From a bacterium (lineage in GTDB: Bacteria > Oederibacteriota > Muellerivitia > Muellerivitales > Muellerivitaceae), in NCBI GenBank assembly GCA_035549195.1, contig DASZRK010000080.1, positions 36,376 through 100,375 on the forward strand: a stretch of DNA of 64,000 bases, in the 5' to 3' direction. The notes beneath the pieces were generated by a model. It made no database searches, was not told the origin of the DNA, and worked only from the letters and a program-made list of their open reading frames with translations. Shown piece by piece: positions 24,467 to 57,818 of this stretch (positions are counted from its first letter, which is position 1; every line of letters begins with the position of its first letter). The translations under genes were made by a program, and so were the position numbers.

Positions 24467-26557
24467 GTGCCAAAAATTACCAAGGGAAGCAAAGGTCTTG
24501 GGGCGGTTTTAGGGGTTTTGGCCTTATGGTTCATCGCCTTGCCTTCGAATGGCTGGTCCCAAAACACGGAGCTGATCTTCGGCCAGAAAAATTCCTTCGG
24601 GATCGGTCCGCGAGCGATCGGCATGGGTGGTGCTTTCGTTGCGGTGGCTGATGATTCATCGGCCGCCTATTGGAACGTGGCCGGATTGGCTCAGTTGAGC
24701 TCTTACGAGATAACCCTATCGAGCGCTCCGGTCTACTTCACGGACCAAGTGAATGGAAAGCAGGCTTTTGGATTCCCTTGGTACGCTTCGATGCAGTTGA
24801 TGATCCCGGTGGCCAAGGAAAACACCCTTGGCATCTCCCTTTTTCGCCCGTTCCATCCCCAATACGACTTTTACTCAGGAAATGCGACCCTATCCACGAG
24901 CCAAAGGTCTGAGGGGAGTTATCTTCTCAACCCAACCTTCCAAGAAAGCGACATTGTTCTTTCTTATGCGGCACGCTTTTCGGCGGTACGTAATTTCTCG
25001 GTCGGTGTGAACATCAAACGATTGACCAATGACCCCTATTATATCCGCTACTTTGGTTCGGATTCCCAGACGGTCACCGTCCTTTCCGATCCCGTTCGCG
25101 TCATCGGTTTCGGTGTGGATATAGGGCTGCTCTATCGGATACCGATCACGAAATATTCCGAGGAATTTCGGATCGGGTTGGCTTTGAACGATCTTGTCAG
25201 CCGTGCTCAATTTTCAAATGGATTGGTCATCAATCATCCGCCGGTGAGCTTCAATGTTGGGCCTGGTTTTGAAACACAGATCCCACCGGTGATCGCTTTG
25301 GGGATAGCCTACAAGAACAATTTCATATTCAAGATCAGGAACATAACGGCTTTTGATTTTGATCAGATCTCAGATCCCCGATTCGATGACGCACACAATA
25401 AATACATCCATTTCGGTACGGAATTTTGGTTCTTCAAGGATGTTTTGGGGGTACGGGCGGGGTACTCATCCCCCTTGAGCCGTCCTGGGGATATCAGTTT
25501 GGGTGGAAGTATCAGGGCCTTGAATGGAGATTTCCAATTGGATGCCGCGTATCTTCAGCCTGTGGGCCCGACGTTCGACATCAATGGCGGCCTGACCCAG
25601 AGCAATGCATCCGGGATCAACTATGAGCCTTTTTATATTGGCGCTACCTACCGCTTTGGCGGTGGGGAAGAGATCCCGCCTCCGAAGGTAAAGGCTTTTG
25701 TCCGCCCGGCCACATTCACTCCTTCGCAAGGTGAAAAGGCGACTTTCTACCTTGATACGACGGAAGATGTCACTGTCAATCGCTGGAGTGTCCTGATCTA
25801 TGATTCGAACAACCACTTGGTCCGAGGTTTGAGAGGGAGCGGTTCTCCGCCCACCCAACTGATCTGGGGTGGCGAGAACGATCATTACGAACCTTTATCT
25901 CCCGGGGTCTATACGTGGTCGTTCCAAGTGGAGGATCAGTTGGAGCATATCGGATCGACCCCGGTGCAAACGGTGGAGATCCTGGGCCCCTCCGAGGCCG
26001 GACCGGCCAGGGATCCCACGAAGCTTTATCAAATCCGTCAACAGCAGGCGGCTCTTTTGGCACAAGAAAGACAGCAACTGACCGACCTTGCCACTAGAAG
26101 CCTGCGGGATCTTCTGGGGCTTGTAGAAGCTACTCCGACAACGGCTAATGCCCAAGCAACCCAAGCATCGACCCCATTGGCGGGGAGCTATCCCGCTATG
26201 GGTTTGGAAGGTGTCAAGGCCTTGACACCCGGGGAGGGGCTCAATAGCCACCGTGAAATAGATCCGAATGGAAATAGCGTTCTAGTGGTTAGCTATAAAT
26301 CCAAGCTAAATGACGCCAACTACGTCATGCAGGAAGCGGCGGATGTCATGAAAAATGATGTGAAAACCACCGGAACTAAGGATTTTAAAACGATGTTAGT
26401 TAATGTATATTATGGGGCCCAGGGAAATGTCCTAAGCATGAAGGCCAATACAGAGGCGATCGCCAATTTTGAAGGTGGTCGGATTGATTTAGCGCGGTTG
26501 AAACAGCTGTCCGATATTTCGATCAATGGGATAAAGGTGGGACCGAATGGCCAATAG
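24467..26557 (+). CDS. outer-membrane beta-barrel protein of FadL/PorV-like superfamily fused to FlgD-Ig-like beta-sandwich and unknown C-terminal domain (paralog 1 of 4)
   Basis: Signal peptide. N-terminal hatch motif GPRAIGMGGAFVAVADDSSAAYWNVAGLA (compare FadL [26 protein letters not shown]). Alternating amphipathic strands to ...FYIGATYRF. Then KATFYLDTTEDVTVNRWSVLIYDSNNHLVRGL...GVYTWSFQVED resembles the FlgD Ig-like domain. ~200 aa extra C-terminus. Confidence 0.6.
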   Translation: MPKITKGSKGLGAVLGVLALWFIALPSNGWSQNTELIFGQKNSFGIGPRAIGMGGAFVAVADDSSAAYWNVAGLAQLSSYEITLSSAPVYFTDQVNGKQAFGFPWYASMQLMIPVAKENTLGISLFRPFHPQYDFYSGNATLSTSQRSEGSYLLNPTFQESDIVLSYAARFSAVRNFSVGVNIKRLTNDPYYIRYFGSDSQTVTVLSDPVRVIGFGVDIGLLYRIPITKYSEEFRIGLALNDLVSRAQFSNGLVINHPPVSFNVGPGFETQIPPVIALGIAYKNNFIFKIRNITAFDFDQISDPRFDDAHNKYIHFGTEFWFFKDVLGVRAGYSSPLSRPGDISLGGSIRALNGDFQLDAAYLQPVGPTFDINGGLTQSNASGINYEPFYIGATYRFGGGEEIPPPKVKAFVRPATFTPSQGEKATFYLDTTEDVTVNRWSVLIYDSNNHLVRGLRGSGSPPTQLIWGGENDHYEPLSPGVYTWSFQVEDQLEHIGSTPVQTVEILGPSEAGPARDPTKLYQIRQQQAALLAQERQQLTDLATRSLRDLLGLVEATPTTANAQATQASTPLAGSYPAMGLEGVKALTPGEGLNSHREIDPNGNSVLVVSYKSKLNDANYVMQEAADVMKNDVKTTGTKDFKTMLVNVYYGAQGNVLSMKANTEAIANFEGGRIDLARLKQLSDISINGIKVGPNGQ

Positions 26558-28100
26558 GCTTTTAACCCTTTACTTTTTGGTCGTTTTTGCCGTTTATTTG
26601 CCTGTTTTTGCGGCCTTTGACAAGGGTGGAGTTTCAGGGATCGGCGCCCGCCCGTTGGGTATGGGCGGGGCGTTTAGTACGATCGCCGATTCAGGCGACG
26701 CTGTTTTTTACAATCCGGCGGGGTTGGTCCAGGTCCTGAGGCCGGAAATCTCCGGTATGGGATCGGTCCTTTTGAACGGTAAAGAGGACCTTTTTGAATT
26801 GGCCTATGTCCAGCCATTCGGGGACCAGATGGCGTGGGCCCTTTCTACGCAACAGTTGTTCTTTACGGACGGCTCGGAGAACGAGCGTTTATACATCGGG
26901 ACTTTTGCGGCCCCCTTGGCAGTGGATAAGTCGATCTCCTTTGGCATCAATATCAAACTGTATGGTGTGGATTCCGCTACCCAGCCTGGTCAACAAGCCA
27001 GCGGGTTGGGGTTGGATATGGGGTTTTTATACCACTTGCCGATATTGGACCCCCGTTATGGCAAGCAGTTCAATATCGGTCTTTCGGCGGAGGATCTGGA
27101 CACCAAGATCCGCTATCAAGCCGGAAATGAGGACCCCATTCCTTTGCGGGTGAGGGGCGGGATCAGTTACGAATTTACCGATGACCTAGTCTGTGCTTTT
27201 GAATTCTCCGATTTTAACGACCCGAACCTTGCCAATCACAACACGCTTCTTCTTGCTGGGATCGAAGGGTGGTTCTTCGAGGATCAATTGGGCTTGAGAA
27301 CGGGTTACACCGGTTTTCAAACGCTTGATGGGCAATTTACCGCAGGAATCAGTTATCGATCCAAGACCTGGGGCATCGATTACGCCTATATTGGTCATGC
27401 GCAGTTTTTGGGTTCCTCCCACCGTATTTCAGCCAAGTGGATGTTCGGCGATTCCTTCCTGGGCAAGGTGAAAAGCTTTATTCCGGAAGGCGTCAATGCC
27501 GTAGTGGAAGGGGACATCATTTCCTTGCGTTGGACGAATTCACCATCCCTTTCTTTGGCCGGATACAATGTTTATTTCAGCAAAACATCGGGTGGCGGAT
27601 ACATCAAGATCAACCAGAAGCCGATAAAAGGTAATTACTATTCCTTGCATGGACTGGAAAAGAACACTAATTATTATTTCGTCGTGACTTCTGTCACCAA
27701 TACGGTGCCCCCTACGGAAAGCCAATATTCCATGGAAGTGGTGGCTGGAACGACTTCTGCCCCTGTGGCGCCGGCAGTGGTCCAAAGTGAGGTGCAGAAC
27801 GAAGGAGTCATCGATATCGCCAAGCAAGAGGGTATGTCGGGATGGGGTGATCCAGGTAAGAGTGGTCTCAAAGGCTACAATGTCTACATTTCCGAGGTTT
27901 CGGGAGGTCGCTTTGACAAGGTCAATGCGCAGCCTTTGGGCAATGTCCCGACCTACTTGGTCCGAAAGTTGAAAGTCGGACAACGTTACTACTTTACGTT
28001 CACGTCCGTTTCTGCGGATGGTGTTGAGAGCGCGCATTCGAAAGAGGTTTCAGCGGTTGCTTTACCCTATAACACGGTCGTTCAACCGGCCGGTAAATAA
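26547..28100 (+). CDS. outer-membrane beta-barrel protein of FadL/PorV-like superfamily fused to two fibronectin-III-like domains (paralog 2 of 4)
   Basis: Signal peptide. Hatch motif GARPLGMGGAFSTIADSGDAVFYNPAGL. Barrel ends ...SSHRISAKWMF. Then two ~90-aa repeats each with GYNVY(F/I)S..SGG...Y(Y)F(V/T)(V/F)TSV (FN3-like). Start overlaps paralog 1 by 11 nt. Confidence 0.6.
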   Translation: MANRLLTLYFLVVFAVYLPVFAAFDKGGVSGIGARPLGMGGAFSTIADSGDAVFYNPAGLVQVLRPEISGMGSVLLNGKEDLFELAYVQPFGDQMAWALSTQQLFFTDGSENERLYIGTFAAPLAVDKSISFGINIKLYGVDSATQPGQQASGLGLDMGFLYHLPILDPRYGKQFNIGLSAEDLDTKIRYQAGNEDPIPLRVRGGISYEFTDDLVCAFEFSDFNDPNLANHNTLLLAGIEGWFFEDQLGLRTGYTGFQTLDGQFTAGISYRSKTWGIDYAYIGHAQFLGSSHRISAKWMFGDSFLGKVKSFIPEGVNAVVEGDIISLRWTNSPSLSLAGYNVYFSKTSGGGYIKINQKPIKGNYYSLHGLEKNTNYYFVVTSVTNTVPPTESQYSMEVVAGTTSAPVAPAVVQSEVQNEGVIDIAKQEGMSGWGDPGKSGLKGYNVYISEVSGGRFDKVNAQPLGNVPTYLVRKLKVGQRYYFTFTSVSADGVESAHSKEVSAVALPYNTVVQPAGK

Positions 28101-39695: not shown

Positions 39696-40109
39696 GTGAT
39701 TTTCATGGTTTCTGGTGTTAGTGGTTCTAGCAATAACGCTGCTTCGAGTGCTTTATCGACGGCAGTTAGCAATCAGTTCGTGTCACAGAATACGTTCTTG
39801 ACCCTTCTGTTGACCCAGCTGAAGAACCAGGATCCGCTGAATCCGCAAGATAGTAGCCAATTCGTTTCCCAATTGGCCCAATTCTCATCTTTGGAGCAGA
39901 TGACGGAAGTCAGCAAGAAGATGGAGTCGGTCCTCGAGAACTCCGTGGTTGGGATGATTGGTCGCACGGTCACGGTGGCGGATTCGACGACGCAAAGCGG
40001 CTTCACTCAAGGGCAGGTCACCGGCATCGTTTATTACGCCGATGGTCCGGCTGTGGTGGTGGATGGCAAGAATTACCCCTTGTCCGCTGTGCAGAGCGTC
40101 TCGCAGTAA
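39696..40109 (+). CDS. flgD: flagellar hook capping/scaffold protein FlgD (short form)
   Basis: FLTLLLTQLKNQDPLNPQDSSQFVSQLAQFSSLEQMTEVSKKME is the canonical FlgD N-domain. Confidence 0.85.
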   Translation: MIFMVSGVSGSSNNAASSALSTAVSNQFVSQNTFLTLLLTQLKNQDPLNPQDSSQFVSQLAQFSSLEQMTEVSKKMESVLENSVVGMIGRTVTVADSTTQSGFTQGQVTGIVYYADGPAVVVDGKNYPLSAVQSVSQ

Positions 40110-42671: not shown

Positions 42672-42715
42672 GGTTAAGTGAGGAAAAAGGTCCGTAAATG
42701 GGCCGGTCGAATGAA

Positions 42716-42746
42716 CGGCGCCCGATAAGGGCGCCGTTTTTATTTT
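42716..42746 (+). terminator. Rho-independent terminator after flgE
   Basis: 8-bp GC stem CGGCGCCC/GGGCGCCG with 5-nt loop GATAA, followed by TTTTTATTTT. Confidence 0.7.
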
Positions 42747-42784
42747 GGGAACGGATTGAATGTGAGATAAGCTTTAATAGAACC

Positions 42785-43831
42785 ATGGAACACGAGAGAA
42801 GAACTTTGTCCCGATCATTTGGATTTTTACTAGTTTTCCTTTCATGTCTCTTTGGGGGATGTACAAAGAACGCGACTTCCCCGAACGGCTCTGCTTGGAC
42901 TGAAGCCACGGCCCATGCGCCTTTCGCGCCTCGGTATGGGCTTTCGGGAACTGTTTTTAATAATTCCATGTGGGTCTTGGGAGGTGCCAGCGGGCCAGTG
43001 ACCACCTATTATGCGGACGTTTGGAAGTCCTCCAATGGAGCTTCTTGGACGCAAACTGCGGCCTCTGCTCCTTTCGGGGGCCGATATGGTGCCCAACTCC
43101 TTTCCTATAACGGAACCTTATATTTGCTGGGCGGGAATAATTCAGGCACTATGAAAAACGATGTTTGGTCATCCTTGGACGGAACTAATTGGACCAAAAT
43201 TCTCGGAAGCACAACGACTGGATCCGCGACCCAATTCCCTCCTCGCGAGGATTTCACGGCATTGGTCTACAACAACTTAATGTGGGTTATCGGGGGGTTC
43301 GATGTCGGTCAAAGTTATAACGATGTTTGGAATTCAGCTGATGGGATTACCTGGAACTTGGTCTTGGCGAATGGAACGGCCGGGGCCAACCATTTTTCAA
43401 AACGTTGGGGGATGTCTTCCGCAGTCTACAACAACCAGATGTGGTTGATGACCGGCGCTTATTCAACGATTGCCAACTCCAATCCAACGACCGTTTATAG
43501 CGATGTTTGGAATTCGAGCACGGGAGCAAGTTGGACCCGCATCTCGCTATCGAATATCTTTTATTCGATGTACTACGGACAAGGGGTTGTTTTCAACAAT
43601 CAGATCTGGTTGACAGGAGGGTATCTGGCGGGGTGGGGAGCACGTAGCATCACGGATTCAACGACGGATGGCATCAACTGGACCCCCAGTTCAGGGCCCT
43701 TTGATTACCGCTTCTATCACCTAGGGCTAAGTTACAATAACAAACTTTGGATCATTGCCGGTTGTAATAATGTCTGCCAGTCCGCGAGTTGTGCGATTAC
43801 CTATTTGAATGATGTTTGGTATACCCAATGA
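42785..43831 (+). CDS. Kelch-type beta-propeller lipoprotein (about 7 repeats of ~48 aa)
   Basis: Lipobox LSCLFGGC. Repeated DVW(K/S/N)S.DG..WT...A...F..R.G motif (e.g. ADVWKSSNGASWTQ, NDVWSSLDGTNWTK, NDVWNSADGITWNL, SDVWNSSTGASWTR), as in Kelch/galactose-oxidase-like blades. Confidence 0.65.
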   Translation: MEHERRTLSRSFGFLLVFLSCLFGGCTKNATSPNGSAWTEATAHAPFAPRYGLSGTVFNNSMWVLGGASGPVTTYYADVWKSSNGASWTQTAASAPFGGRYGAQLLSYNGTLYLLGGNNSGTMKNDVWSSLDGTNWTKILGSTTTGSATQFPPREDFTALVYNNLMWVIGGFDVGQSYNDVWNSADGITWNLVLANGTAGANHFSKRWGMSSAVYNNQMWLMTGAYSTIANSNPTTVYSDVWNSSTGASWTRISLSNIFYSMYYGQGVVFNNQIWLTGGYLAGWGARSITDSTTDGINWTPSSGPFDYRFYHLGLSYNNKLWIIAGCNNVCQSASCAITYLNDVWYTQ

Positions 43832-44048: not shown

Positions 44049-44164
44049 TCCCCTCGCTTTTGCCCTAAACGGTTGCGTGGTCTGGGCTGGCCGAAGATAA
44101 TGTTGTGGATTGGTTTGTGAGAGATTCGGGGTAAACTTCACTTAAAACGGTATCTGGAGTTGGG

Positions 44165-45691
44165 ATGGCATTCATAGAAAAGTTTTTCCATCGAATCTTG
44201 ACCCTTTTTTTTGTTTTTGTTTCAGTCTTTTTGGTCTTTGGGACTGGTTTTTGCGCACTTTCAAATGATCCAAACCAGCATTTTGACCCTACTCCGACGA
44301 CGGGTGGGAATGCGAAGATAAACTGGGCAATTACCCATAGCGGTGCGACCGCTTATACATTAACGGCATTAACGACCAATTCGGGTGGAACTGCAGACCC
44401 ATCCGATGCTACGACCGCTACCACAGGATTGATCACCTCATCCGGAAGTTGTCCTTCTTGTAATGTTACCCTGACCTATACCGATCCAAATACCGGGAGC
44501 GCTTCATCTCAGCTTTATGTTCTGGTGGATGTCTACTCGGCGAACACAGGGAGAAGTTTCCAGATCATAGCGACCGATGTTTCTAATAACTCCGTGACGG
44601 CAACGACTAACGACCTTCTTTATAATTGTTCCTCGGGTGGCGTCCTTGGTGGATCGACTCTCGCTAATACGTGGTCGACACTCTTTGTAGATACTTCGGG
44701 GTTGGGCGTCATTCAAACCGTCACCATCATCATTCCGTCCGCGGGGACGATGAACACGAATCCGGTCTACGTCGATAATTTGTATGGGTCAGGAGTCCTT
44801 CCTTGTTTGGTCCCCCCCACACCCACTAATACGCCGACTTCTTCTCCGACCGCGACTCCGACCGTGACGTCGACTTTTACACCTACGAATAGTCCGTCGG
44901 CGACGCCGACCGATACCGGCACTCCGACGCCGACCGGGACCCCTTCAGCTACACCAACCAAAACGTCGACGGCCACCCAAACCTCCACCCCTACATTCAC
45001 TGGAACCCATACCGCAACATCCACCCCGTCAGCTACTCCCACGGACACACCTCCGTTTACGGCAACCTTGACGCCCTCGGCCACGACAACAGGTACGCCA
45101 ACCAATACAGGTGTTGCAACATCGACCAATACAACGACTTCGACCCCGACCGCTTCCTTTACTTCGACCCCCTCATTTACATTTACCTCCACCCCTACGC
45201 AGACCTTCACATTTACCCCCACCTTATCTCCAACCTTCACCTTTACGCCGACCACTTCCTTTACTTTCACGCCGTCCGCTACCTTTACGAGGACCTTTAC
45301 GCCCACGATCACCAATACCCCTGGTCCCACGGCGACCTTTACCAATACGCCTTGTCCGATCACCGTCTATCCACAGCCCATGGATTTCCAACACAATCCG
45401 GCCTATACCAACCAATGTCCGGGTGGAACAGCCTGCATCAAGATCGGTTGTGTGCCCATTGGCTCGACCTTGAAGATCTACACGGTGGACCTTTCCCTGG
45501 TCCGCTCCTATGCGGCGAACGACCCCAATTTCACTCCGGTCCCTAGCTTGGGAGTTGGGACATTCACTTGGGATGGCAAGAACGGCGACGGGAACCCGGT
45601 TTCTTCAGGCTTTTATTATTTCGTGACCGAAGGTCCGGCGGGTAGGTCTTTCGGCAAACTGGCCATTTCCCGTTCTTGGACGGGCCCTTGA
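44165..45691 (+). CDS. secreted Thr/Pro-rich repeat surface protein with C-terminal FlgD-Ig-like / T9SS-CTD-like beta-sandwich domain
   Basis: N-terminal signal/TM. ~190 aa of TPT/TFT degenerate repeats ([23 protein letters not shown]...[24 protein letters not shown]). C-terminus [17 protein letters not shown]...[40 protein letters not shown] resembles both the FlgD Ig-like domain and type IX sorting CTDs. Confidence 0.6.
44815..45340 (+). repeat. degenerate codon-level tandem repeat (ACx-CCx / ACx-TTx units) encoding the Thr/Pro/Phe-rich low-complexity region
   Basis: Visible as recurring acgccgac/accccgac/tttacgccc units. Also produces the G/V-rich antisense shadow ORF 44767-45363. Confidence 0.6.
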
Positions 45692-46662
45692 AACTTTCAT
45701 CCACCTGCAAGATATGTGTTGCTTTCGTTTTCTTGTCTTTCTCCTTCCGGCCTTTGGTGCTCCATGCCGAAACGAGCAACGGCGGACGTGCGGCTTTTGA
45801 AATATTGAAGATCTCGCCCGTGACGAGGGCCATGGCACTAGGAGGTGCCTATACGGCCATTGGAGATGATATCGGCTCCATTTATTACAACCCCGCGGGG
45901 CTTGCCAGCGTCCTGAGCAATGAATTCAATGTGACCTATTTGTCCCTCTATCAGGGGTTGAATTACGAGTTCCTGGCCTACGCCTATCCGGTCGCCTTGG
46001 GAATGCCGGATTTAGGTGGAACGATCGCCTTGGGAGCGGGGATGCTCCAACCGGGCTCCATGCAACGCACGGACGATTTTGGTGTTACCACAGGGACCTT
46101 TACGAGCGGCGACCAGGTTTTCAGCCTGGCCTATGCCAAAAATTTCGGGGATACGGTCCATGCCGGCGTGGCCGTCAACCTCATCCAGCAGCAGATCGAC
46201 ACGGTTTCCAGCTCGCTTTTCGATGTTACAGCCGGCATCGTGGTGGTGCCCTCGTTCAGTGGGATGAGGATCGGCCTTTCCTTGAAAAATTTAGGGGCCC
46301 AATCCGCGGGTTTTGACCTGCCCTTCACGATGAATGCGGGGATCTCTTACCGGCGTTATGAACTCTTCAGTGAACAGGACGATGGCGCCTTGACCGCCGA
46401 AGTCTCGATGCCATTGCAACCCATTGAGGACCCGGCCGGGGTCAAAGTCGGCGCGGAATATAATTTCAAATGGGTCGGGAGCCGTGCGACCCTAAGAGCA
46501 GGTTATGAATTCCTCGATACTTCCTTGAACGGGGTCGGCTTGGGTGTGGGAGCGGGTTACGGATTGGATCTCGGGGGCGCGGTCCTGTTCCTGGATTATG
46601 CCTTCGCTCCGGCGGATATCTTTGGAAGCTCCCACCGGATATCCCTCACAACGAAATTTTAA
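45676..46662 (+). CDS. outer-membrane beta-barrel protein, FadL/PorV-like superfamily (paralog 3 of 4)
   Basis: Signal peptide. Hatch motif [28 protein letters not shown]. ~300 aa of alternating strands. C-terminal [12 protein letters not shown] (terminal Phe), very similar to paralog 2 barrel end SSHRISAKWMF. Start overlaps upstream gene by 16 nt. Confidence 0.6.
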
Positions 46663-46673
46663 AGGCCATCTTC

Positions 46674-47705
46674 ATGCATCGATTGTTCTTCCGGTCTTCC
46701 TTTCTTCTTGGGGTCGTCTTGCTGATGGCCGGGTCGGCCTGCGCCCAGACGGTGGGAACCACTACGGCAGACATCTTGAAAATCAATCAAGGGACCCGGC
46801 CTTCGGCCATGGGCGGGGTTTTTACGGCCATGGGGGATGATGTTTACTCCATGAGTTATAACCCAGCGGGATTGAGCTATATCAAGGCCACCCAGGTAGT
46901 CTTGCTTCATCTGGATAGTCTTGCCGATATCCAATATGAATACCTGGCCCTTGGGACCGCTTTTGGCTCGGGGGATGTACTGGGTCTGAACCTCACCTAT
47001 CGCCATTCGCCCACGATCGACAATAACAACGGCAACCCTCCCGTCAATACGGATGACCTTTTGGGTGGCTTGTCCTGTGCGCTTAAACTTATGCCGGACC
47101 TCCGGGCCGGACTTTCAATAAAGTATTTGAAGAGCACCTTGGCCAATTATTCGGGAACTGCGATCGCATTCGATCTGGGAGCGGTCCTCGACCATCTTCC
47201 TTACGGATGTAAAGTGGGAGCCGCCGTCCAGAACCTCGGTACTGGTATGACCTTCACGCCGGGTGGGACCGGTGCGGGTTCGGGTTACCCCTCCGAGAAC
47301 CTTCCCATGTTCCTCCGGCTCGGGATCGGGACCCACCAGGTCTTCGACGGCAACAAGGATTTCAACGCCGCGGTCGAGGTCTTCAAACCGGCCGACCAGG
47401 ACATCAAATTGGGTGTCGGAGCGGAGTTCTGGCTTTTCCCGCAACTTTTTGCGGTCCGCGGTGGATATAAATTCGAGAACTTGGGGAACCTTTTTGGAGG
47501 AACGGACCCGAATACCGGGAATGCCTTTCCGGGGGTCCCGAACACATTTGACAATTACAGCCTTGGCTGCACCTTGACCCGCCGGATCGATGGCGATGAT
47601 TTTTCGGTCGACATCGCCTACAACCCCGCGAACTTCACCTCGACGACCTCGGACACCTTCTTTTTCGCCTTGAACCTGAAGTTCAACCAATTCCGCATTT
47701 TCTAA
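46674..47705 (+). CDS. outer-membrane beta-barrel protein, FadL/PorV-like superfamily (paralog 4 of 4)
   Basis: Signal peptide ending ...SACAQ. Hatch motif TRPSAMGGVFTAMGDDVYSMSYNPAGLS. C-terminal ...LNLKFNQFRIF. Confidence 0.6.
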   Translation: MHRLFFRSSFLLGVVLLMAGSACAQTVGTTTADILKINQGTRPSAMGGVFTAMGDDVYSMSYNPAGLSYIKATQVVLLHLDSLADIQYEYLALGTAFGSGDVLGLNLTYRHSPTIDNNNGNPPVNTDDLLGGLSCALKLMPDLRAGLSIKYLKSTLANYSGTAIAFDLGAVLDHLPYGCKVGAAVQNLGTGMTFTPGGTGAGSGYPSENLPMFLRLGIGTHQVFDGNKDFNAAVEVFKPADQDIKLGVGAEFWLFPQLFAVRGGYKFENLGNLFGGTDPNTGNAFPGVPNTFDNYSLGCTLTRRIDGDDFSVDIAYNPANFTSTTSDTFFFALNLKFNQFRIF

Positions 47706-47801: not shown

Positions 47802-47877
<76 letters not shown>

Positions 47878-53156: not shown

Positions 53157-54098
53157 TTGATCGAAGTCAAAGAGTTGGTCAAAACCTATGGGGCTCTCGC
53201 GGCGGTCGACCGAGTGACCTTTTCGGTTCCCAAAGGTTCCATCCTGGGCCTTTTGGGGCCCAATGGGGCCGGCAAGACAACGACCATGCGGATCCTGACC
53301 ACCTCCCTGGCCCTCAGCTCGGGTAAGGCGACGGTCGCCGGGTTCGACGTGGTGGAACAACCCCAGGAAGTCCGCAAGAGGATCGGTTACCTCCCCGAGA
53401 TCCCGCCCATCTATCAGGACATGTCGGTGGTCAACTACCTTCGCTTCGTGGCGGACATCAAGGAAGTGCCTTCGGACCAAAAGGCGAACCGGGTGGGGGA
53501 GGTCCTGGAACTGCTTTCGCTCGAGGACATGGGCAAACGGATGATCGGGCATCTTTCCTTGGGTTACCGCCAAAGGGTGGGGTTGGCCCAGGCCCTGATC
53601 CACGACCCCGAGGTCTTGATCCTCGATGAGCCGACCCGGGGCCTGGACCCGAAACAGATCCAAGAGATCCGCAAATTGATCAAATCCTTAAGCGGGAAAA
53701 AGACCATCATTCTTTCCACCCATATCCTGCCCGAGGTTTCCTCGACCTGTGACGATGTGGTCATCATCGACCGGGGTCGGGTGGTGGCGGCGGATACGGT
53801 CGAGAACCTTTCCCAGCGGGTCTCCGGCGGAAAGACCCTGGAGATCGAAGTGAAGGGGCCCCAGGTGGAAGTGGCCAAGGCCCTGGAAAAGACGGAGGGC
53901 GTCTCAACGGTCAAGACCGCCGATAAGGAAGTGCGTGGACTTTGCCGTTTCGAGGTCACCACCGACGGGTCCAACGAGGCCCGGGAAGCGCTCTTCCAGA
54001 CCGTCGTGAAGAACAAATGGGTCCTCTACCAGTTGACCCCGCTGGGCATGAGCTTGGAGGATGTTTTCTTGAAGCTGACCACCAAGGAGGGCGCCTAG
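53157..54098 (+). CDS. ABC transporter ATP-binding protein (GldA/ABC-2 type)
   Basis: Walker A LGPNGAGKTTTMRIL, signature LSLGYRQRVGLAQAL, Walker B LILDEPTRGLD. Confidence 0.85.
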   Translation: MIEVKELVKTYGALAAVDRVTFSVPKGSILGLLGPNGAGKTTTMRILTTSLALSSGKATVAGFDVVEQPQEVRKRIGYLPEIPPIYQDMSVVNYLRFVADIKEVPSDQKANRVGEVLELLSLEDMGKRMIGHLSLGYRQRVGLAQALIHDPEVLILDEPTRGLDPKQIQEIRKLIKSLSGKKTIILSTHILPEVSSTCDDVVIIDRGRVVAADTVENLSQRVSGGKTLEIEVKGPQVEVAKALEKTEGVSTVKTADKEVRGLCRFEVTTDGSNEAREALFQTVVKNKWVLYQLTPLGMSLEDVFLKLTTKEGA

Positions 54099-54811
54099 TG
54101 AACGCCCGCAAACTTTCAGCCCTGGTCCGCAAGGAATTGACCCACTATTTCTCCTCTTTTATGGGGTATGTGGTCCTCTTCGCCTTTTTCCTCATCAGCG
54201 GCTTCTTTTACTTCCTGATCGTGACCCAAGGGCGGCAGGCGAGCATGCAGCCTGTCTTCCAGAACTTGCTGGTCATCCTTCTTTTCGTGACCCCGGCCAT
54301 CACCATGCGGCTTTGGAGCGAAGAGGAAAAATCAGGGACCGCTGAATTGTTGAAAACTTCGCCGCTGACGGTCTGGGAGATCGTGATCGGGAAATTCCTG
54401 GGTGTCACCTGCTTTTTCCTGGTGACCCTGGTCCCGACCTTCATTTACCTGGCCTTTCTCGTTGTCCTGGGGAATCCGGACATCCCCCCGGTCTTCGCCA
54501 ATTACCTGGGGTATGTACTCGCGGCCATGGGATTCTTCGCCGTAGGTCTTTTGGCCTCGACGTTCACCGAGAACCAGATCATTTCGGCCATCATCGCCTT
54601 TGGAATGCTGCTTCTCCTTTGGGTGGTAGGGGCGGCCGGTTCGGGGGCCCAAGGTTCCCTTGGGGATTTCCTGAAGTACCTCTCCATCTTTGAACATACC
54701 AACGACTTTTTCTCCGGGATCATCGACCTGGGGCATATCGTCTACTTCCTGAGCCTCATTTTCCTGGGACTTTTCTTTTCAGTGAAAGTCTTGGAAGGCA
54801 AGAGGAACTGA
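54098..54811 (+). CDS. ABC-2 family transporter permease (GldF-like)
   Basis: GTG at 54098 overlapping the ATPase stop (TAGTG). ~237 aa with 6 predicted TM helices. Track ORF 53942-54811 is in the same frame. Confidence 0.65.
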   Translation: MNARKLSALVRKELTHYFSSFMGYVVLFAFFLISGFFYFLIVTQGRQASMQPVFQNLLVILLFVTPAITMRLWSEEEKSGTAELLKTSPLTVWEIVIGKFLGVTCFFLVTLVPTFIYLAFLVVLGNPDIPPVFANYLGYVLAAMGFFAVGLLASTFTENQIISAIIAFGMLLLLWVVGAAGSGAQGSLGDFLKYLSIFEHTNDFFSGIIDLGHIVYFLSLIFLGLFFSVKVLEGKRN

Positions 54812-54812
54812 C

Positions 54813-56417
54813 ATGAACTTGAACCAAACCTTCATCCGTATCCGTTCCCTGAACGTGGTCTTCCTCTCCGTGGGCATGGCTTTGCTGCTGGGGGGGATCC
54901 TGGCCGTCCTGGTGCTGGACACCACCAGTTGGTGGAACATCACCCTCATGGCACTGGGGTTGGTCCTCTTGATCCTATTCCTGTCGGCCAATCTGGCCGA
55001 TGTGAAGGCGGTGGGTAAGAGACGCGGAACGGTCGTGAGGGCCAACCTGACCCTCGTTTCCGTCGCAATGGCCGGGATCATCATCGGCTTGAACTACATC
55101 GTTTCCCGCCATCCGTTTCGGTATGACATGACTTCGAACAAGATCTACACCCTCTCGGACCAGACGCTCGAGATCCTCGGCAAGCTCAAGCAGGAGGTCG
55201 ATGTGACCATGATCACCTCGGCCAAGCGCTCTTCCGCCGAGATCCAAAAAGCCCAACAACTGCTCGAAGAATACGGGAAGCACTCGACCAAGTTCAGGTT
55301 GAAGGTGGTCGACGGGGACCGGAACCCCGCTGAGGTCCAAAAACTGAGGGTGACGGAGGCCAATACGGTCGTTTTCGAATCCGGGGCGAACCGCAAGGAT
55401 GTGCTCCAGAGGGATTACATCACCTATTCCATGATGGGCCGTCAGCCGGTGCCGAAATTCCAAGGGGAAGCCGCTTTCACCTCGGCCCTCCTGAAGATGG
55501 TGGATGACTCTCACAAGACCTTCTATTTGACGGAAGGCCATGGGGAACGGGACCTGAACAGCCCCCAAGGGGACGGTTTGAACGGGATCAAGGAGCTTCT
55601 TGAGAAGGAAAACTACACGGTCAAAAGCTTGAACCTGCTGACCTCGGGGAAGATCCCCGAAGACGCCACTTTGATCGGCATCATTGGACCGGAAAAACCA
55701 TTCCAAAATTCCGAGGAGGTGTTCCTGCGGGATTACCTTAAGAAAGGCGGGAAGATGGTCCTTTGTGTCGATCCCATGGTCCATTCGGGACTCGATGCCC
55801 TTCTCAAGGATTTTGGCCTGTCCCTGGACAACGATTATTTGGTCGATATGACCATGAGCATACCGCCCGACCCGCGCAACATCGTCCCCCAATACATGGG
55901 CCATTCCATCGTCCAAAAGCTGGCGGACAGTCGGGTCCTGACCATCATGCCGTTCATGCGGAGCATCCATAAGGGGACCGCGGCCCTCGAAGGTGTGGTC
56001 CAGGGGCTCCTGATGCAAACGACGTCCAACGGATATGGCGGGAAGGACTTCAAGGCCCGGACGCTCAAGCGGGAGCCCGGGGACTTGAGCGGCCCCCTCG
56101 ACATGGGCTACGCCTGTGAATATCCCGTGCCGGGCTCGAGCGACAAGAAGGCCCGGTTGGTCGTGATCGGCGGCTCCAATTTCATGACCAACAATTTCCT
56201 CCAAGCTCCCGGGAACGGCGACTTGGCCATCAATTGCTTCAGCTGGGCGGCGGAGGATGAGAACAAGATCTCCATCCATCCGAAGACGGAGGAGAACCGG
56301 ACCGTCAACCTGACCACCGTCAGTGCGAACCTGATCAAGTACGTCGCGGTAGGCCTTATTCCTTTCGGGACCCTCCTGCTCGGCGGGGTGGTCTGGTACC
56401 GCCGCCGTTCCCTCTGA
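54813..56417 (+). CDS. GldG-like ABC-transporter auxiliary component (ABC-type uncharacterized transport system family)
   Basis: N-terminal TM pair, large periplasmic domain, C-terminal TM (YVAVGLIPFGTLLLGGVVWY). Architecture and position after an ABC-2 permease are typical of GldG. Confidence 0.7.
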   Translation: MNLNQTFIRIRSLNVVFLSVGMALLLGGILAVLVLDTTSWWNITLMALGLVLLILFLSANLADVKAVGKRRGTVVRANLTLVSVAMAGIIIGLNYIVSRHPFRYDMTSNKIYTLSDQTLEILGKLKQEVDVTMITSAKRSSAEIQKAQQLLEEYGKHSTKFRLKVVDGDRNPAEVQKLRVTEANTVVFESGANRKDVLQRDYITYSMMGRQPVPKFQGEAAFTSALLKMVDDSHKTFYLTEGHGERDLNSPQGDGLNGIKELLEKENYTVKSLNLLTSGKIPEDATLIGIIGPEKPFQNSEEVFLRDYLKKGGKMVLCVDPMVHSGLDALLKDFGLSLDNDYLVDMTMSIPPDPRNIVPQYMGHSIVQKLADSRVLTIMPFMRSIHKGTAALEGVVQGLLMQTTSNGYGGKDFKARTLKREPGDLSGPLDMGYACEYPVPGSSDKKARLVVIGGSNFMTNNFLQAPGNGDLAINCFSWAAEDENKISIHPKTEENRTVNLTTVSANLIKYVAVGLIPFGTLLLGGVVWYRRRSL

Positions 56418-56435
56418 TCCTTCGGAGTCGACCTT

Positions 56436-57818
56436 TTGAAGAACTTCAAGACCACCTATTTTTATCTCCTGGTCGTAGTCCTCGTCGGCGGCTACATCTA
56501 TTTCTTCGAGAGGGGACCGGCCAAGAAACCCGAGGATGATAAAAAGGTCGCGGTGCTCGACCGTTTCGTGGCCGATGAGATCCAGAGCATCCAGGTGGAG
56601 GACTTTTCGAACAGCGCCAATGTCAAGATGGGGCCCATCCTCATGACGAAGGGCGACAAGGACGTTTGGACGATCGATTCCCCTAAACACTACAAGGCGG
56701 ATGAGGCCACGATCCGCTCTCTCCTGACGGGGATCGGGGACATGAACCCGGAAACGACCATTGAGGCACCCTCCGACCTGAAGCAATTCGGTTTGGACCC
56801 GCCCCAGGGGAAATGCACCCTCAAGTCCAAAAGCGGGCAGACCTTCGTCCTATTGGTCGGTAATAAAGCCATCGGCGGCTCGACGGTCTATGTGAGACCG
56901 GGAGACAAGAACAAGGTCTACTTGGTCGGCTCCTACGCGGCGGACAACCTGCATAAGGGTCTTGACTCCTACCGGGACCGCTTCTTTTTCAAGACCGATT
57001 CCGTCTTGGCCCGGAAGGTTCGTGTCGTCCGGGACGGGAAAACCGCCTCTTTCGAACGGGACAAGGGGGGGCAGTGGAACATCGTGGCCCCGATCCAGTC
57101 CAAGGCCGACACGAACAAGGTCCGGGACCTACTGAACACCATCAGTTCGCTCCGGATCGAGGAATTCGTCACGGACCATCCGACGGACCTCAAGATCTAC
57201 GGACTTTCTTCCCCCCATATCCGCATTGAGGTGCAGAACAGCGACTCGTCCGGCACCCATTCCATCCTGATCGGGCGTAAAAAACTCAAGACGACCAATC
57301 TCTATGCCAAATCAGGCGAGGAGCCCTATGTGGGTTTGGTGGGGGAATATATCGACAAGTCCCTGGACCTCAAGATCGACGATTATCGGGATAAAACGGC
57401 CCTTCAATTCGATGGCGGAGCGGTCAAGAATTTGGTGGTCCGCCGGGGGAGCGCCTCCTATGCCTATCAAAAGGACGTGAAGGGAGCATGGACCTGTCCC
57501 GGACGGCCGAACGCCGATAACGAGGCCAAGAACTTGATCGACCAATTGGCGTCGGAGACCGTCCTCGAATTCCCGCCCTCCGATGAGGCTACGGGGCTGA
57601 AAGAACCCGTTTTCCAGGTGGAGGTGACCCTGGCGGATGGGAGCACGGCCAACTATCGTTTTGGGCGGCGGGAGCAAGGGAAGGTCTTCGTCAGTTCCAG
57701 CCGGTCCAAGGACGTCTATAAGATCGCGGATGCCGTCGTTTCCACGATGGAAGGCTACTACAATTCGATCCTGACGCCGGTGGCGGCCCCGGCGAAGTCC
57801 GCTCAGCCCTCCAAGTAA
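56436..57818 (+). CDS. DUF4340-like periplasmic protein (commonly downstream of gldG homologs)
   Basis: N-terminal TM, then repeated beta-rich modules. Genomic context after gldG-like gene. Domain assignment from memory of typical pairing. Confidence 0.55.
   Translation: MKNFKTTYFYLLVVVLVGGYIYFFERGPAKKPEDDKKVAVLDRFVADEIQSIQVEDFSNSANVKMGPILMTKGDKDVWTIDSPKHYKADEATIRSLLTGIGDMNPETTIEAPSDLKQFGLDPPQGKCTLKSKSGQTFVLLVGNKAIGGSTVYVRPGDKNKVYLVGSYAADNLHKGLDSYRDRFFFKTDSVLARKVRVVRDGKTASFERDKGGQWNIVAPIQSKADTNKVRDLLNTISSLRIEEFVTDHPTDLKIYGLSSPHIRIEVQNSDSSGTHSILIGRKKLKTTNLYAKSGEEPYVGLVGEYIDKSLDLKIDDYRDKTALQFDGGAVKNLVVRRGSASYAYQKDVKGAWTCPGRPNADNEAKNLIDQLASETVLEFPPSDEATGLKEPVFQVEVTLADGSTANYRFGRREQGKVFVSSSRSKDVYKIADAVVSTMEGYYNSILTPVAAPAKSAQPSK

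Follow-up and report, generated by a model that had tools for sequence, protein, structure and literature searches.

Among described systems, the closest to the locus considered here are the attachment-complex proteins of type IX secretion (T9SS), whose uncleaved C-terminal domains (CTDs) stay bound to the barrels PorQ and PorV (PMC12365241). Type B CTD proteins, SprB with SprF for example, are likewise encoded beside a dedicated PorP/SprF-like carrier barrel (PMC12365241). A CTD paired with a PorV/PorQ barrel is regarded as belonging to type IX secretion in the Bacteroidota or, more broadly, the Fibrobacterota-Chlorobiota-Bacteroidota (FCB) group. Here, we analysed a 64,000-nucleotide stretch of bacterial DNA (contig DASZRK010000080.1 of assembly GCA_035549195.1; hereafter the window, from whose first letter positions are counted), in which three co-directional open reading frames (ORFs) on the + strand encode a protein of the exported type, here called X, and two predicted barrels. 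What might this trio do? The reading that we favour, with about even confidence, is that X is a surface protein whose CTD is anchored in the PorQ-like barrel 1 and that barrel 2 is a further partner, in an operon resembling an attachment complex. For comparison, 25 species-representative genomes were recovered with a barrel 2 profile, most of the taxon-labelled ones belonging to candidate division FCPU426, an uncultured candidate phylum with almost no functional literature. The trio and the parts of X are laid out as follows.

44165-45691, + strand: X, a 508-residue ORF of the Sec-exported type
44165..44257, + strand: X residues 1-31, predicted Sec-type signal peptide (hydrophobic N-terminus; cleavage region ahead of the conserved LSNDPNQHF)
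44258..44803, + strand: X residues 32-213, predicted β-sandwich (jelly-roll) head with a fold like that of carbohydrate-binding modules (CBMs), from AlphaFold2 (AF2) and Foldseek
44804..45379, + strand: X residues 214-405, predicted disordered Thr/Pro/Ser stalk, from composition and an AF2 confidence (pLDDT) below 50
45380..45688, + strand: X residues 406-508, predicted seven-stranded Ig-like CTD (motifs VYPxPMDFQ ... KIYT ... WDGxNGDGNPV.SGFY ... FGKFAISRS)
45688-46662 (alternative TTG start 45676), + strand: barrel 1, PorQ-like member of the PorV/PorQ family
46674-47705, + strand: barrel 2, the second PorV/PorQ-family barrel

The CTD was modelled by AF2 with seven strands at a pLDDT of 80-90. 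It forms a compact 3+4 Ig-like β-sandwich at the extreme C-terminus, and a compact 3+4 Ig-like sandwich of seven strands is what defines type A CTDs of the T9SS (PMC11285876). A second mark of type A is a Gly at the start of β4 (motif L-β3-β4), and the motif C-t. of T9SS CTDs contains a conserved Lys in the last strand (PMC11285876); the last-strand Lys498 of X, which lies within FGK(F/L)AISR and is invariant among X orthologues, would correspond to this Lys. When matches were ranked by structure, PorZ and PorU, whose T9SS CTDs are not cleaved, came out best with FlgD slightly behind, and Foldseek returned the same order, PorZ and PorU before FlgD, with nothing at E<=1e-3. Among the 21 orthologous CTDs, with every match below threshold, the CTD part of the PorZ model weakly matched all 21, CHU_C 19 (best 0.005), TIGR04183 ten (best 5e-4), the PorU CTD six and PF18962 two. 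A profile of the CTD searched against PDB sequences gave nothing better than E>=0.1. The Pfam model FlgD_ig (PF13860; gathering threshold, GA, 27 bits) scored 26.7 bits on whole X and 28.4 bits on the CTD alone, in an alignment covering just positions 46-72 of the 79 in the model (27 positions). X differs from FlgD in having a Sec signal peptide and in lacking the FlgD N-terminal and Tudor domains; it does not belong with hook-cap FlgD, which takes GA 27 plus the N-terminal domain. A true FlgD is encoded at 39696-40109 (+), with 137 residues, the N-terminal domain, a weak Tudor-like match and no Ig-like domain. By sequence and model, then, the CTD is assigned to the FlgD_ig/T9SS-CTD fold class, where its closest counterparts are the uncleaved CTDs held by PorQ and PorV. 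The double resemblance to FlgD_ig and to T9SS sorting domains that a preliminary description of this DNA had noticed is thus borne out by the sub-threshold T9SS matches of the orthologues, a FlgD_ig score near GA and the structural ranking.

How widespread is this domain? Searched exhaustively with HMMER, the CTD profile gave 568 representatives at E<=1e-3, many of them proteins of 200-4200 residues with a single copy at their extreme C-terminus and others multi-repeat giants. Twenty-five C-terminal carriers were scanned, of which 19 matched the PorZ model, 14 the PorU model and 13 TIGR04183 (E<=0.01, best 1.5e-7); the passengers vary widely, with proteases, glycosidases and choice-of-anchor D domains among them. 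Other FCPU426 proteins with weak T9SS type A-like C-termini are found at L026 15538-19359 (-), L017 7931-8818 and L014 16058-16870, where TIGR04183 scores 15-19 bits; no barrel homologue was found adjoining the CTD protein of L026. Such weak CTDs may point to a CTD-dependent route of general use in this phylum.

Both barrels fall into the PorV/PorQ family, for which the NCBIfam cut-offs are 90 bits (family model NF033709), 220 bits (PorQ, NF033711) and 250 bits (PorV, NF033710). Barrel 1 scores 116 bits with NF033709 over model positions 2-326 of 326, and 110 and 31 bits with the PorQ and PorV models; the corresponding values for barrel 2 are 133 bits (positions 1-326 of 326), 69 and 57 bits. 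The barrels called PorV-like in the preliminary description are thereby placed in the family at full-length coverage. All scanned orthologues match NF033709 at E<=0.001 (22/22 for barrel 1, 18/18 for barrel 2). Across the orthologues, the best E-values are 9e-34 for PorQ and 3e-14 for PorV in the case of barrel 1, as opposed to 4e-27 and 3.5e-22 for barrel 2; judged from these scores, barrel 1 is clearly PorQ-like, and barrel 2 appears more balanced between PorV and PorQ. The two are distant paralogues (26% identity, E=4e-16), in agreement with the earlier account of a 508-residue, Thr/Pro-rich secreted protein followed by two paralogous barrels, whose ORFs and linker we likewise recovered. 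Hallmarks of outer-membrane (OM) barrels are seen in their hydrophobic N-termini and in a C-terminal Phe, barrel 1 ending in ...LTTKF and barrel 2 in ...NQFRIF. Against the PDB, the barrel 2 family profile found Flavobacterium johnsoniae PorV (6h3i_F, E=1e-16); barrel 1 had no match as a single sequence, and as a profile reached PorV with just E=0.38.

Three lines of evidence connect the CTD with barrel 1. The stop codon of X overlaps the barrel 1 start by the 16 nt of the preliminary description if the longest ORF (TTG 45676) is taken, but the public gene call starts barrel 1 at TTG 45688, leaving a 4-nt TTGA overlap; in three relatives with inspected gene calls, X stop and barrel 1 start abut or share 1 nt. 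Whichever start is right, the arrangement of the two genes predicts translational coupling. Pairwise divergence of the CTD correlates with that of barrel 1 at r=0.86 (Mantel p=2e-4), compared to 0.57 for barrel 2 and 0.14 for FlgE, and the bootstrap 95% interval of the difference between barrel 1 and barrel 2 is 0.05-0.52; this co-variation supports the pairing in a suggestive manner only, because phylogeny confounds it. Lastly, a PorV-like barrel lies immediately downstream of a CTD-bearing protein in loci of other lineages (L033, L035, L038), and L036 holds the canonical porU-porV pair, in which a PorU-like C25 peptidase, its CTD labelled FlgD_ig by Pfam, is followed by PorV. The earlier proposal that a barrel binds the CTD of its cargo here as well gains from coupling, co-variation and pairing in unrelated lineages, and binding itself is what these would imply.

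What would the CTD hold at the surface? Orthologues of X share the motif A-x-A/LSxDxxQxF at the presumptive signal peptide cleavage region, and residues 2-25 were modelled as a helix. The head reaches a pLDDT of ~80 across most of residues 50-210 and has the β-jelly-roll fold in common with CBM11 and CBM4: Foldseek against the PDB matched CBM11 (1v0a) at E=1e-6 and CBM4 at ~1e-4, with template-modelling (TM) scores of about 0.5 and 10-13% identity. It also found the spirochaete protein FlaA1 (9cyn) at E ~6e-5 and a TM score of 0.41-0.43. An abundance of CBM11 has been reported for the related 16S cluster of Goldbacteria and FCPU426 (PMC7031533). Behind the head, the linker of 192 residues consists of 41% Thr, 18% Pro and 10% Ser (69% together). 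It is of low complexity in composition, with short, weak arrays as the only output of Tandem Repeats Finder and no exact tandem DNA repeats, and its length differs among orthologues.

Together, these features suggest a self-contained operon that would build an OM-tethered surface protein on the principle of PorZ-PorQ and PorU-PorV. X would be exported by Sec, and its CTD, being of T9SS type rather than part of a FlgD, would remain bound to the PorQ-like barrel 1. The stalk of ~190 residues would keep the CBM-like head off the cell, X would probably serve as a glycan-binding adhesin or sensor, and barrel 2 may act as second partner, be it as shuttle or as co-anchor. Physical binding between CTD and barrel, surface exposure, glycan binding and a route across the OM are what we infer. 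Several observations weigh against this reading. The window CTD has no TIGR04183 or PF18962 match at E<=10 (the TIGR04183 cut-off is 23 bits), and the matches of its orthologues to T9SS models are all sub-threshold; of the two profile checks proposed in the preliminary description, FlgD_ig thus came out at threshold and TIGR04183 empty. Neither barrel attains the PorV or PorQ equivalog cut-off, and we take both for members of the PorV/PorQ family, not for orthologues of PorQ or PorV. The CBM-like label of the head refers to fold only (TM 0.5, ~11% identity): a Pfam search with residues 32-213 matched no family, hence no CBM family model, and the head is not assigned to CBM11 or CBM4, for which a sequence-family match is needed. 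Shared phylogeny is a confounder of the mirror-tree correlations, for which the FlgE control, moreover, was noisy. Finally, T9SS is regarded as restricted to Bacteroidota/FCB (PMC11285876, PMC12365241), and no T9SS core gene is present among the annotated genes of the window and of loci up to 21 kb, the extent of the sequence examined.

X is easily overlooked. A barrel 2 protein identical to that of the window is encoded on contig CAZXBC010000012.1 of a metagenome-assembled genome (MAG) at NCBI (GCA_964638935.1), under the name 'PorV/PorQ family protein'. On this contig and in close relatives, public gene calls break X into a 103-residue FlgD_ig fragment and an antisense ORF of 198 residues. 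The latter corresponds to a V/G-rich ORF at 44767-45363 (-) of the window, opposite the Thr/Pro-rich middle of X, and is also found in the calls for L001 and L003; we consider it spurious, an artefact of the X linker region. Even so, X is a genuine, undivided gene: in ~20 species, signal peptide, N-terminal domain, T/P linker and CTD all lie in a single frame, and orthologues span 375 to 635 residues and end in FGKFAISRSxNGP. The split explains why the CTD alone, as query of a word-indexed homologue search, gave just five fragments of 103-119 residues, full-length orthologues being obtained with a head-plus-CTD query. Similarly, an exact database look-up of the 328-residue barrel 1 ORF gave no match because public calls begin at TTG 45688. 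As public callers split X, its family is largely missing from protein databases.

Within FCPU426, the trio is a nearly constant feature. By tblastn, the gene order flgD, flgE, (Kelch), flbD, up to one variable ORF, X, barrel 1, barrel 2 is kept in all sufficiently long loci but one, the 2.9-kb contig L025, where barrel 2 (1669-2864) follows straight after flbD, X and barrel 1 being absent, either through a deletion in nature or, perhaps, through an error of assembly. X, barrel 1 and barrel 2 are contiguous in every FCPU426 locus spanning the whole region, while the flanks vary. Identity to the window proteins amounts to 52-75% for barrel 1, 35-72% for barrel 2, 36-72% for the CTD and 29-56% for the head. 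In the window, the module begins 116 nt after flbD and is followed, 96 nt past the end of barrel 2, by a tRNA gene that the preliminary description had correctly located at ~100 nt:

47802-47877, + strand: tRNA-Phe(GAA), detected by ARAGORN and Rfam

An Rfam scan found this tRNA and nothing else. In 16 of 17 FCPU426 loci, tRNA-Phe sits directly 3' of barrel 2, with the variable genes, pgm, fecR and pilZ among them, located past it. From this conservation, the operon appears ancestral and vertically inherited in FCPU426. In about half of the FCPU426 genomes, an extra, fast-evolving ORF of 216-1055 residues separates flbD from the element described next (L005 2266-5421, L006 3179-5788, L009, L011, L018, L027, L029, L031, L032); similarity between genomes is weak, and the two that were checked had no Pfam match. 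Fast-evolving, present in about half of the genomes and absent from the window, this ORF was not counted as belonging to the module.

Aligning the region upstream of X across species brought out a conserved element:

44067..44101, + strand: promoter-like element GAAACnGTTGC-N19-GATAAT, 64 nt upstream of the X start codon

It can be read as a -35 box TTGCGT and a -10 box GATAAT with a spacer of 17 nt, and 14 of its positions are invariant in eight aligned species. Perfect matches occur in 23 loci (20 distinct), once per locus and on the + strand. In 19 of 20 distinct measured loci, the element lies 64-228 nt upstream of X, whichever gene precedes and even where the extra ORF parts flbD from X; the exception, L019, has an X gene that looks disrupted. 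The window contains one perfect match only, so that the element does not precede other flagellar genes there. A generic promoter and terminator scan performed at chance level, and the motif emerged from the cross-species alignment alone. Readings as a sigma-28, sigma-54 or extracytoplasmic-function sigma factor promoter were rejected by eye on spacing, the 17-nt spacer fitting a sigma-70-like one. The element probably acts as a promoter and, because it is unique, present once per locus and kept upstream of X even past the extra ORF, the trio looks like a transcription unit of its own.

Other explanations have to be weighed against tethering of X to barrel 1. Could X be a common T9SS cargo? The genome would then encode a full T9SS at another place, the CTD would be a cleavable export signal, and the barrels, as PorV-type shuttles, would pass X to a PorU sortase that attaches it covalently or releases it. 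Its CTD family does occur on many passengers, about half of those scanned matching the T9SS type A model; the other FCPU426 proteins that end in weak TIGR04183-like CTDs without an adjoining barrel would suit a general CTD-dependent route, as would the alignment of the barrel 2 family profile to PorV. Yet T9SS has been reported for FCB phyla only (PMC11285876), the best matches of the CTD are of the uncleaved PorZ and PorU type, and a dedicated, coupled and co-varying barrel that is PorQ-like is more in keeping with a stable anchor than with a transient shuttle. We regard this scenario as unlikely, though worth keeping in view. PorV and PorQ belong to the FadL-like barrel superfamily, and the two barrels could thus be uptake channels for hydrophobic compounds, unrelated to X and adjacent to it merely by inherited gene order. 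Pfam indeed yields weak matches to Toluene_X/FadL and UPF0164, but the FadL matches are sub-threshold where those to the PorV/PorQ family are above threshold, and neither the start/stop coupling of barrel 1 with X nor the CTD-barrel 1 co-variation nor the recurrence of the pairing in other lineages would be expected of bystanders; such a role is most improbable.

Another candidate is a flagellar role, as the module follows, on the same strand and in all loci with upstream sequence except L025, which is without X, a flagellar supercluster of ~42 kb (fliF-G-H-I-J, motA-B, fliL-M-N-O-P-R, flhB-A-F-G, fliA, fapA, flgF-G-A-H-I, flgN-K, fliK, flgD, flgE, a Kelch protein gene and flbD, all +). X might coat or bind a (glycosylated) filament or hook in the manner of FlaA, much like the flagellum- or sheath-associated fibre considered in the preliminary description, or the barrels might ring the flagellar exit in the OM. 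The CTD matches FlgD_ig, and the head resembles the sheath protein FlaA1, with which X shares Sec export, a jelly roll and a gene alongside flagellar genes. FlaA, however, has neither stalk nor CTD, there is no sequence-family match to it, and the structural match is weaker than the generic CBM matches. Synteny is weak evidence, since the downstream housekeeping genes for rlmH and a helicase are syntenic in most loci as well. The trio has its own promoter-like element, the distant homologous CTD-barrel pairs of other lineages are not beside flagellar genes, and the L and P rings (FlgH, FlgI) speak for external flagella of the ordinary kind. On balance, an accessory role at the flagellum seems quite improbable. 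Scarcely credible is the view of the preliminary description that the trio is an accessory module whose end marks an island boundary, i.e. a horizontally acquired island integrated at tRNA-Phe. A tRNA gene is close by and the head of X has a GC content at third codon positions (GC3) of 0.48, lower than in most neighbouring genes; against this, the same order after flbD, tRNA-Phe included, recurs in nearly all 25 species-level FCPU426 genomes at 35-75% protein identity, no integrase was found among the neighbouring genes, no repeats were seen at the locus, and what varies is found downstream of the tRNA. The GC and codon comparison suggested in the preliminary description gave a native composition, the barrels having the GC (0.55) and GC3 (0.66-0.68) of flanking genes, and we rejected the island.

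The surroundings contain further genes of note. Between flgE and flbD, at 42698-43831 (+), a Kelch β-propeller protein with a lipobox-like LFGGC is encoded, which most but not all FCPU426 loci have; right after the flgE stop and within the nominal start of the Kelch ORF, a strong hairpin plus T-run is found at 42713-42739. Between fapA and flgF (24467-28100, +) lie genes for a protein of 696 residues without a Pfam match and one of 517 residues with a single fn3 domain. At 53157-57818 (+), an ABC transporter together with ABC_transp_aux (GldG-like) and DUF4340 proteins resembles the gliding-associated GldA/F/G set; as such sets are widespread outside Bacteroidota, this is no evidence for a T9SS.

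In this small operon, present phylum-wide, parts known from type IX secretion come together in a flagellated and uncultured lineage that does not belong to the FCB group, with a passenger of a new kind, a CBM-like head on a long stalk, and a strongly conserved regulatory element. Should the phylum be without a T9SS translocon, this would represent a simpler, possibly ancestral way of anchoring surface proteins; should it have one, the known range of T9SS-like export would widen. Going further, FCPU426 might possess a stand-alone minimal attachment complex without SprA or PorKLMN, made up of a single glycan-binding CTD protein with one PorQ-like and one PorV-like barrel, in which the barrels export or anchor X, or else a lineage-specific OM accessory of the flagellum. 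Either would be rather improbable in our estimate, but, if true, would set anchoring by a CTD and a PorV-family barrel apart, as a principle, from type IX secretion and point to its evolutionary origin. In public MAGs, X is systematically mis-annotated, split and shadowed by a false antisense ORF, and a whole family has thus been largely invisible in databases.

How, then, does the operon compare to known systems? The 16S cluster of FCPU426 has been linked to flagellated, cellulolytic Goldbacteria, beside Firestonebacteria and Elusimicrobia (PMC7031533), and papers about FCPU426, or about T9SS in the phyla next to it, offered nothing on secretion systems. As far as one window and the loci allow a comparison, FCPU426 differs from T9SS hosts in lying outside FCB and being flagellated. 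With SprB-SprF, the X-barrel 1 pair shares the side-by-side genes of a surface protein and a dedicated carrier barrel; the barrels differ (PorP/SprF versus PorV/PorQ), and so does the type of CTD, CHU_C matching X orthologues only weakly. The likeness is closer to PorZ-PorQ and PorU-PorV of Porphyromonas gingivalis. There, too, the passengers are unlike, a double β-propeller in PorZ and a C25 peptidase in PorU as opposed to a small CBM-like head on a stalk, and the X operon has two barrels per CTD protein, with scores below the equivalog cut-offs. What they have in common is a Sec-exported CTD protein together with a barrel of the PorV/PorQ family, and a seven-stranded Ig-like CTD, which in P. 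gingivalis stays uncleaved and held by the barrel and in X scores best as a PorZ or PorU CTD. Even the gene order agrees: porU and porV are adjacent in P. gingivalis, with the gene for the CTD protein directly upstream of that for the barrel, just as X precedes barrel 1.

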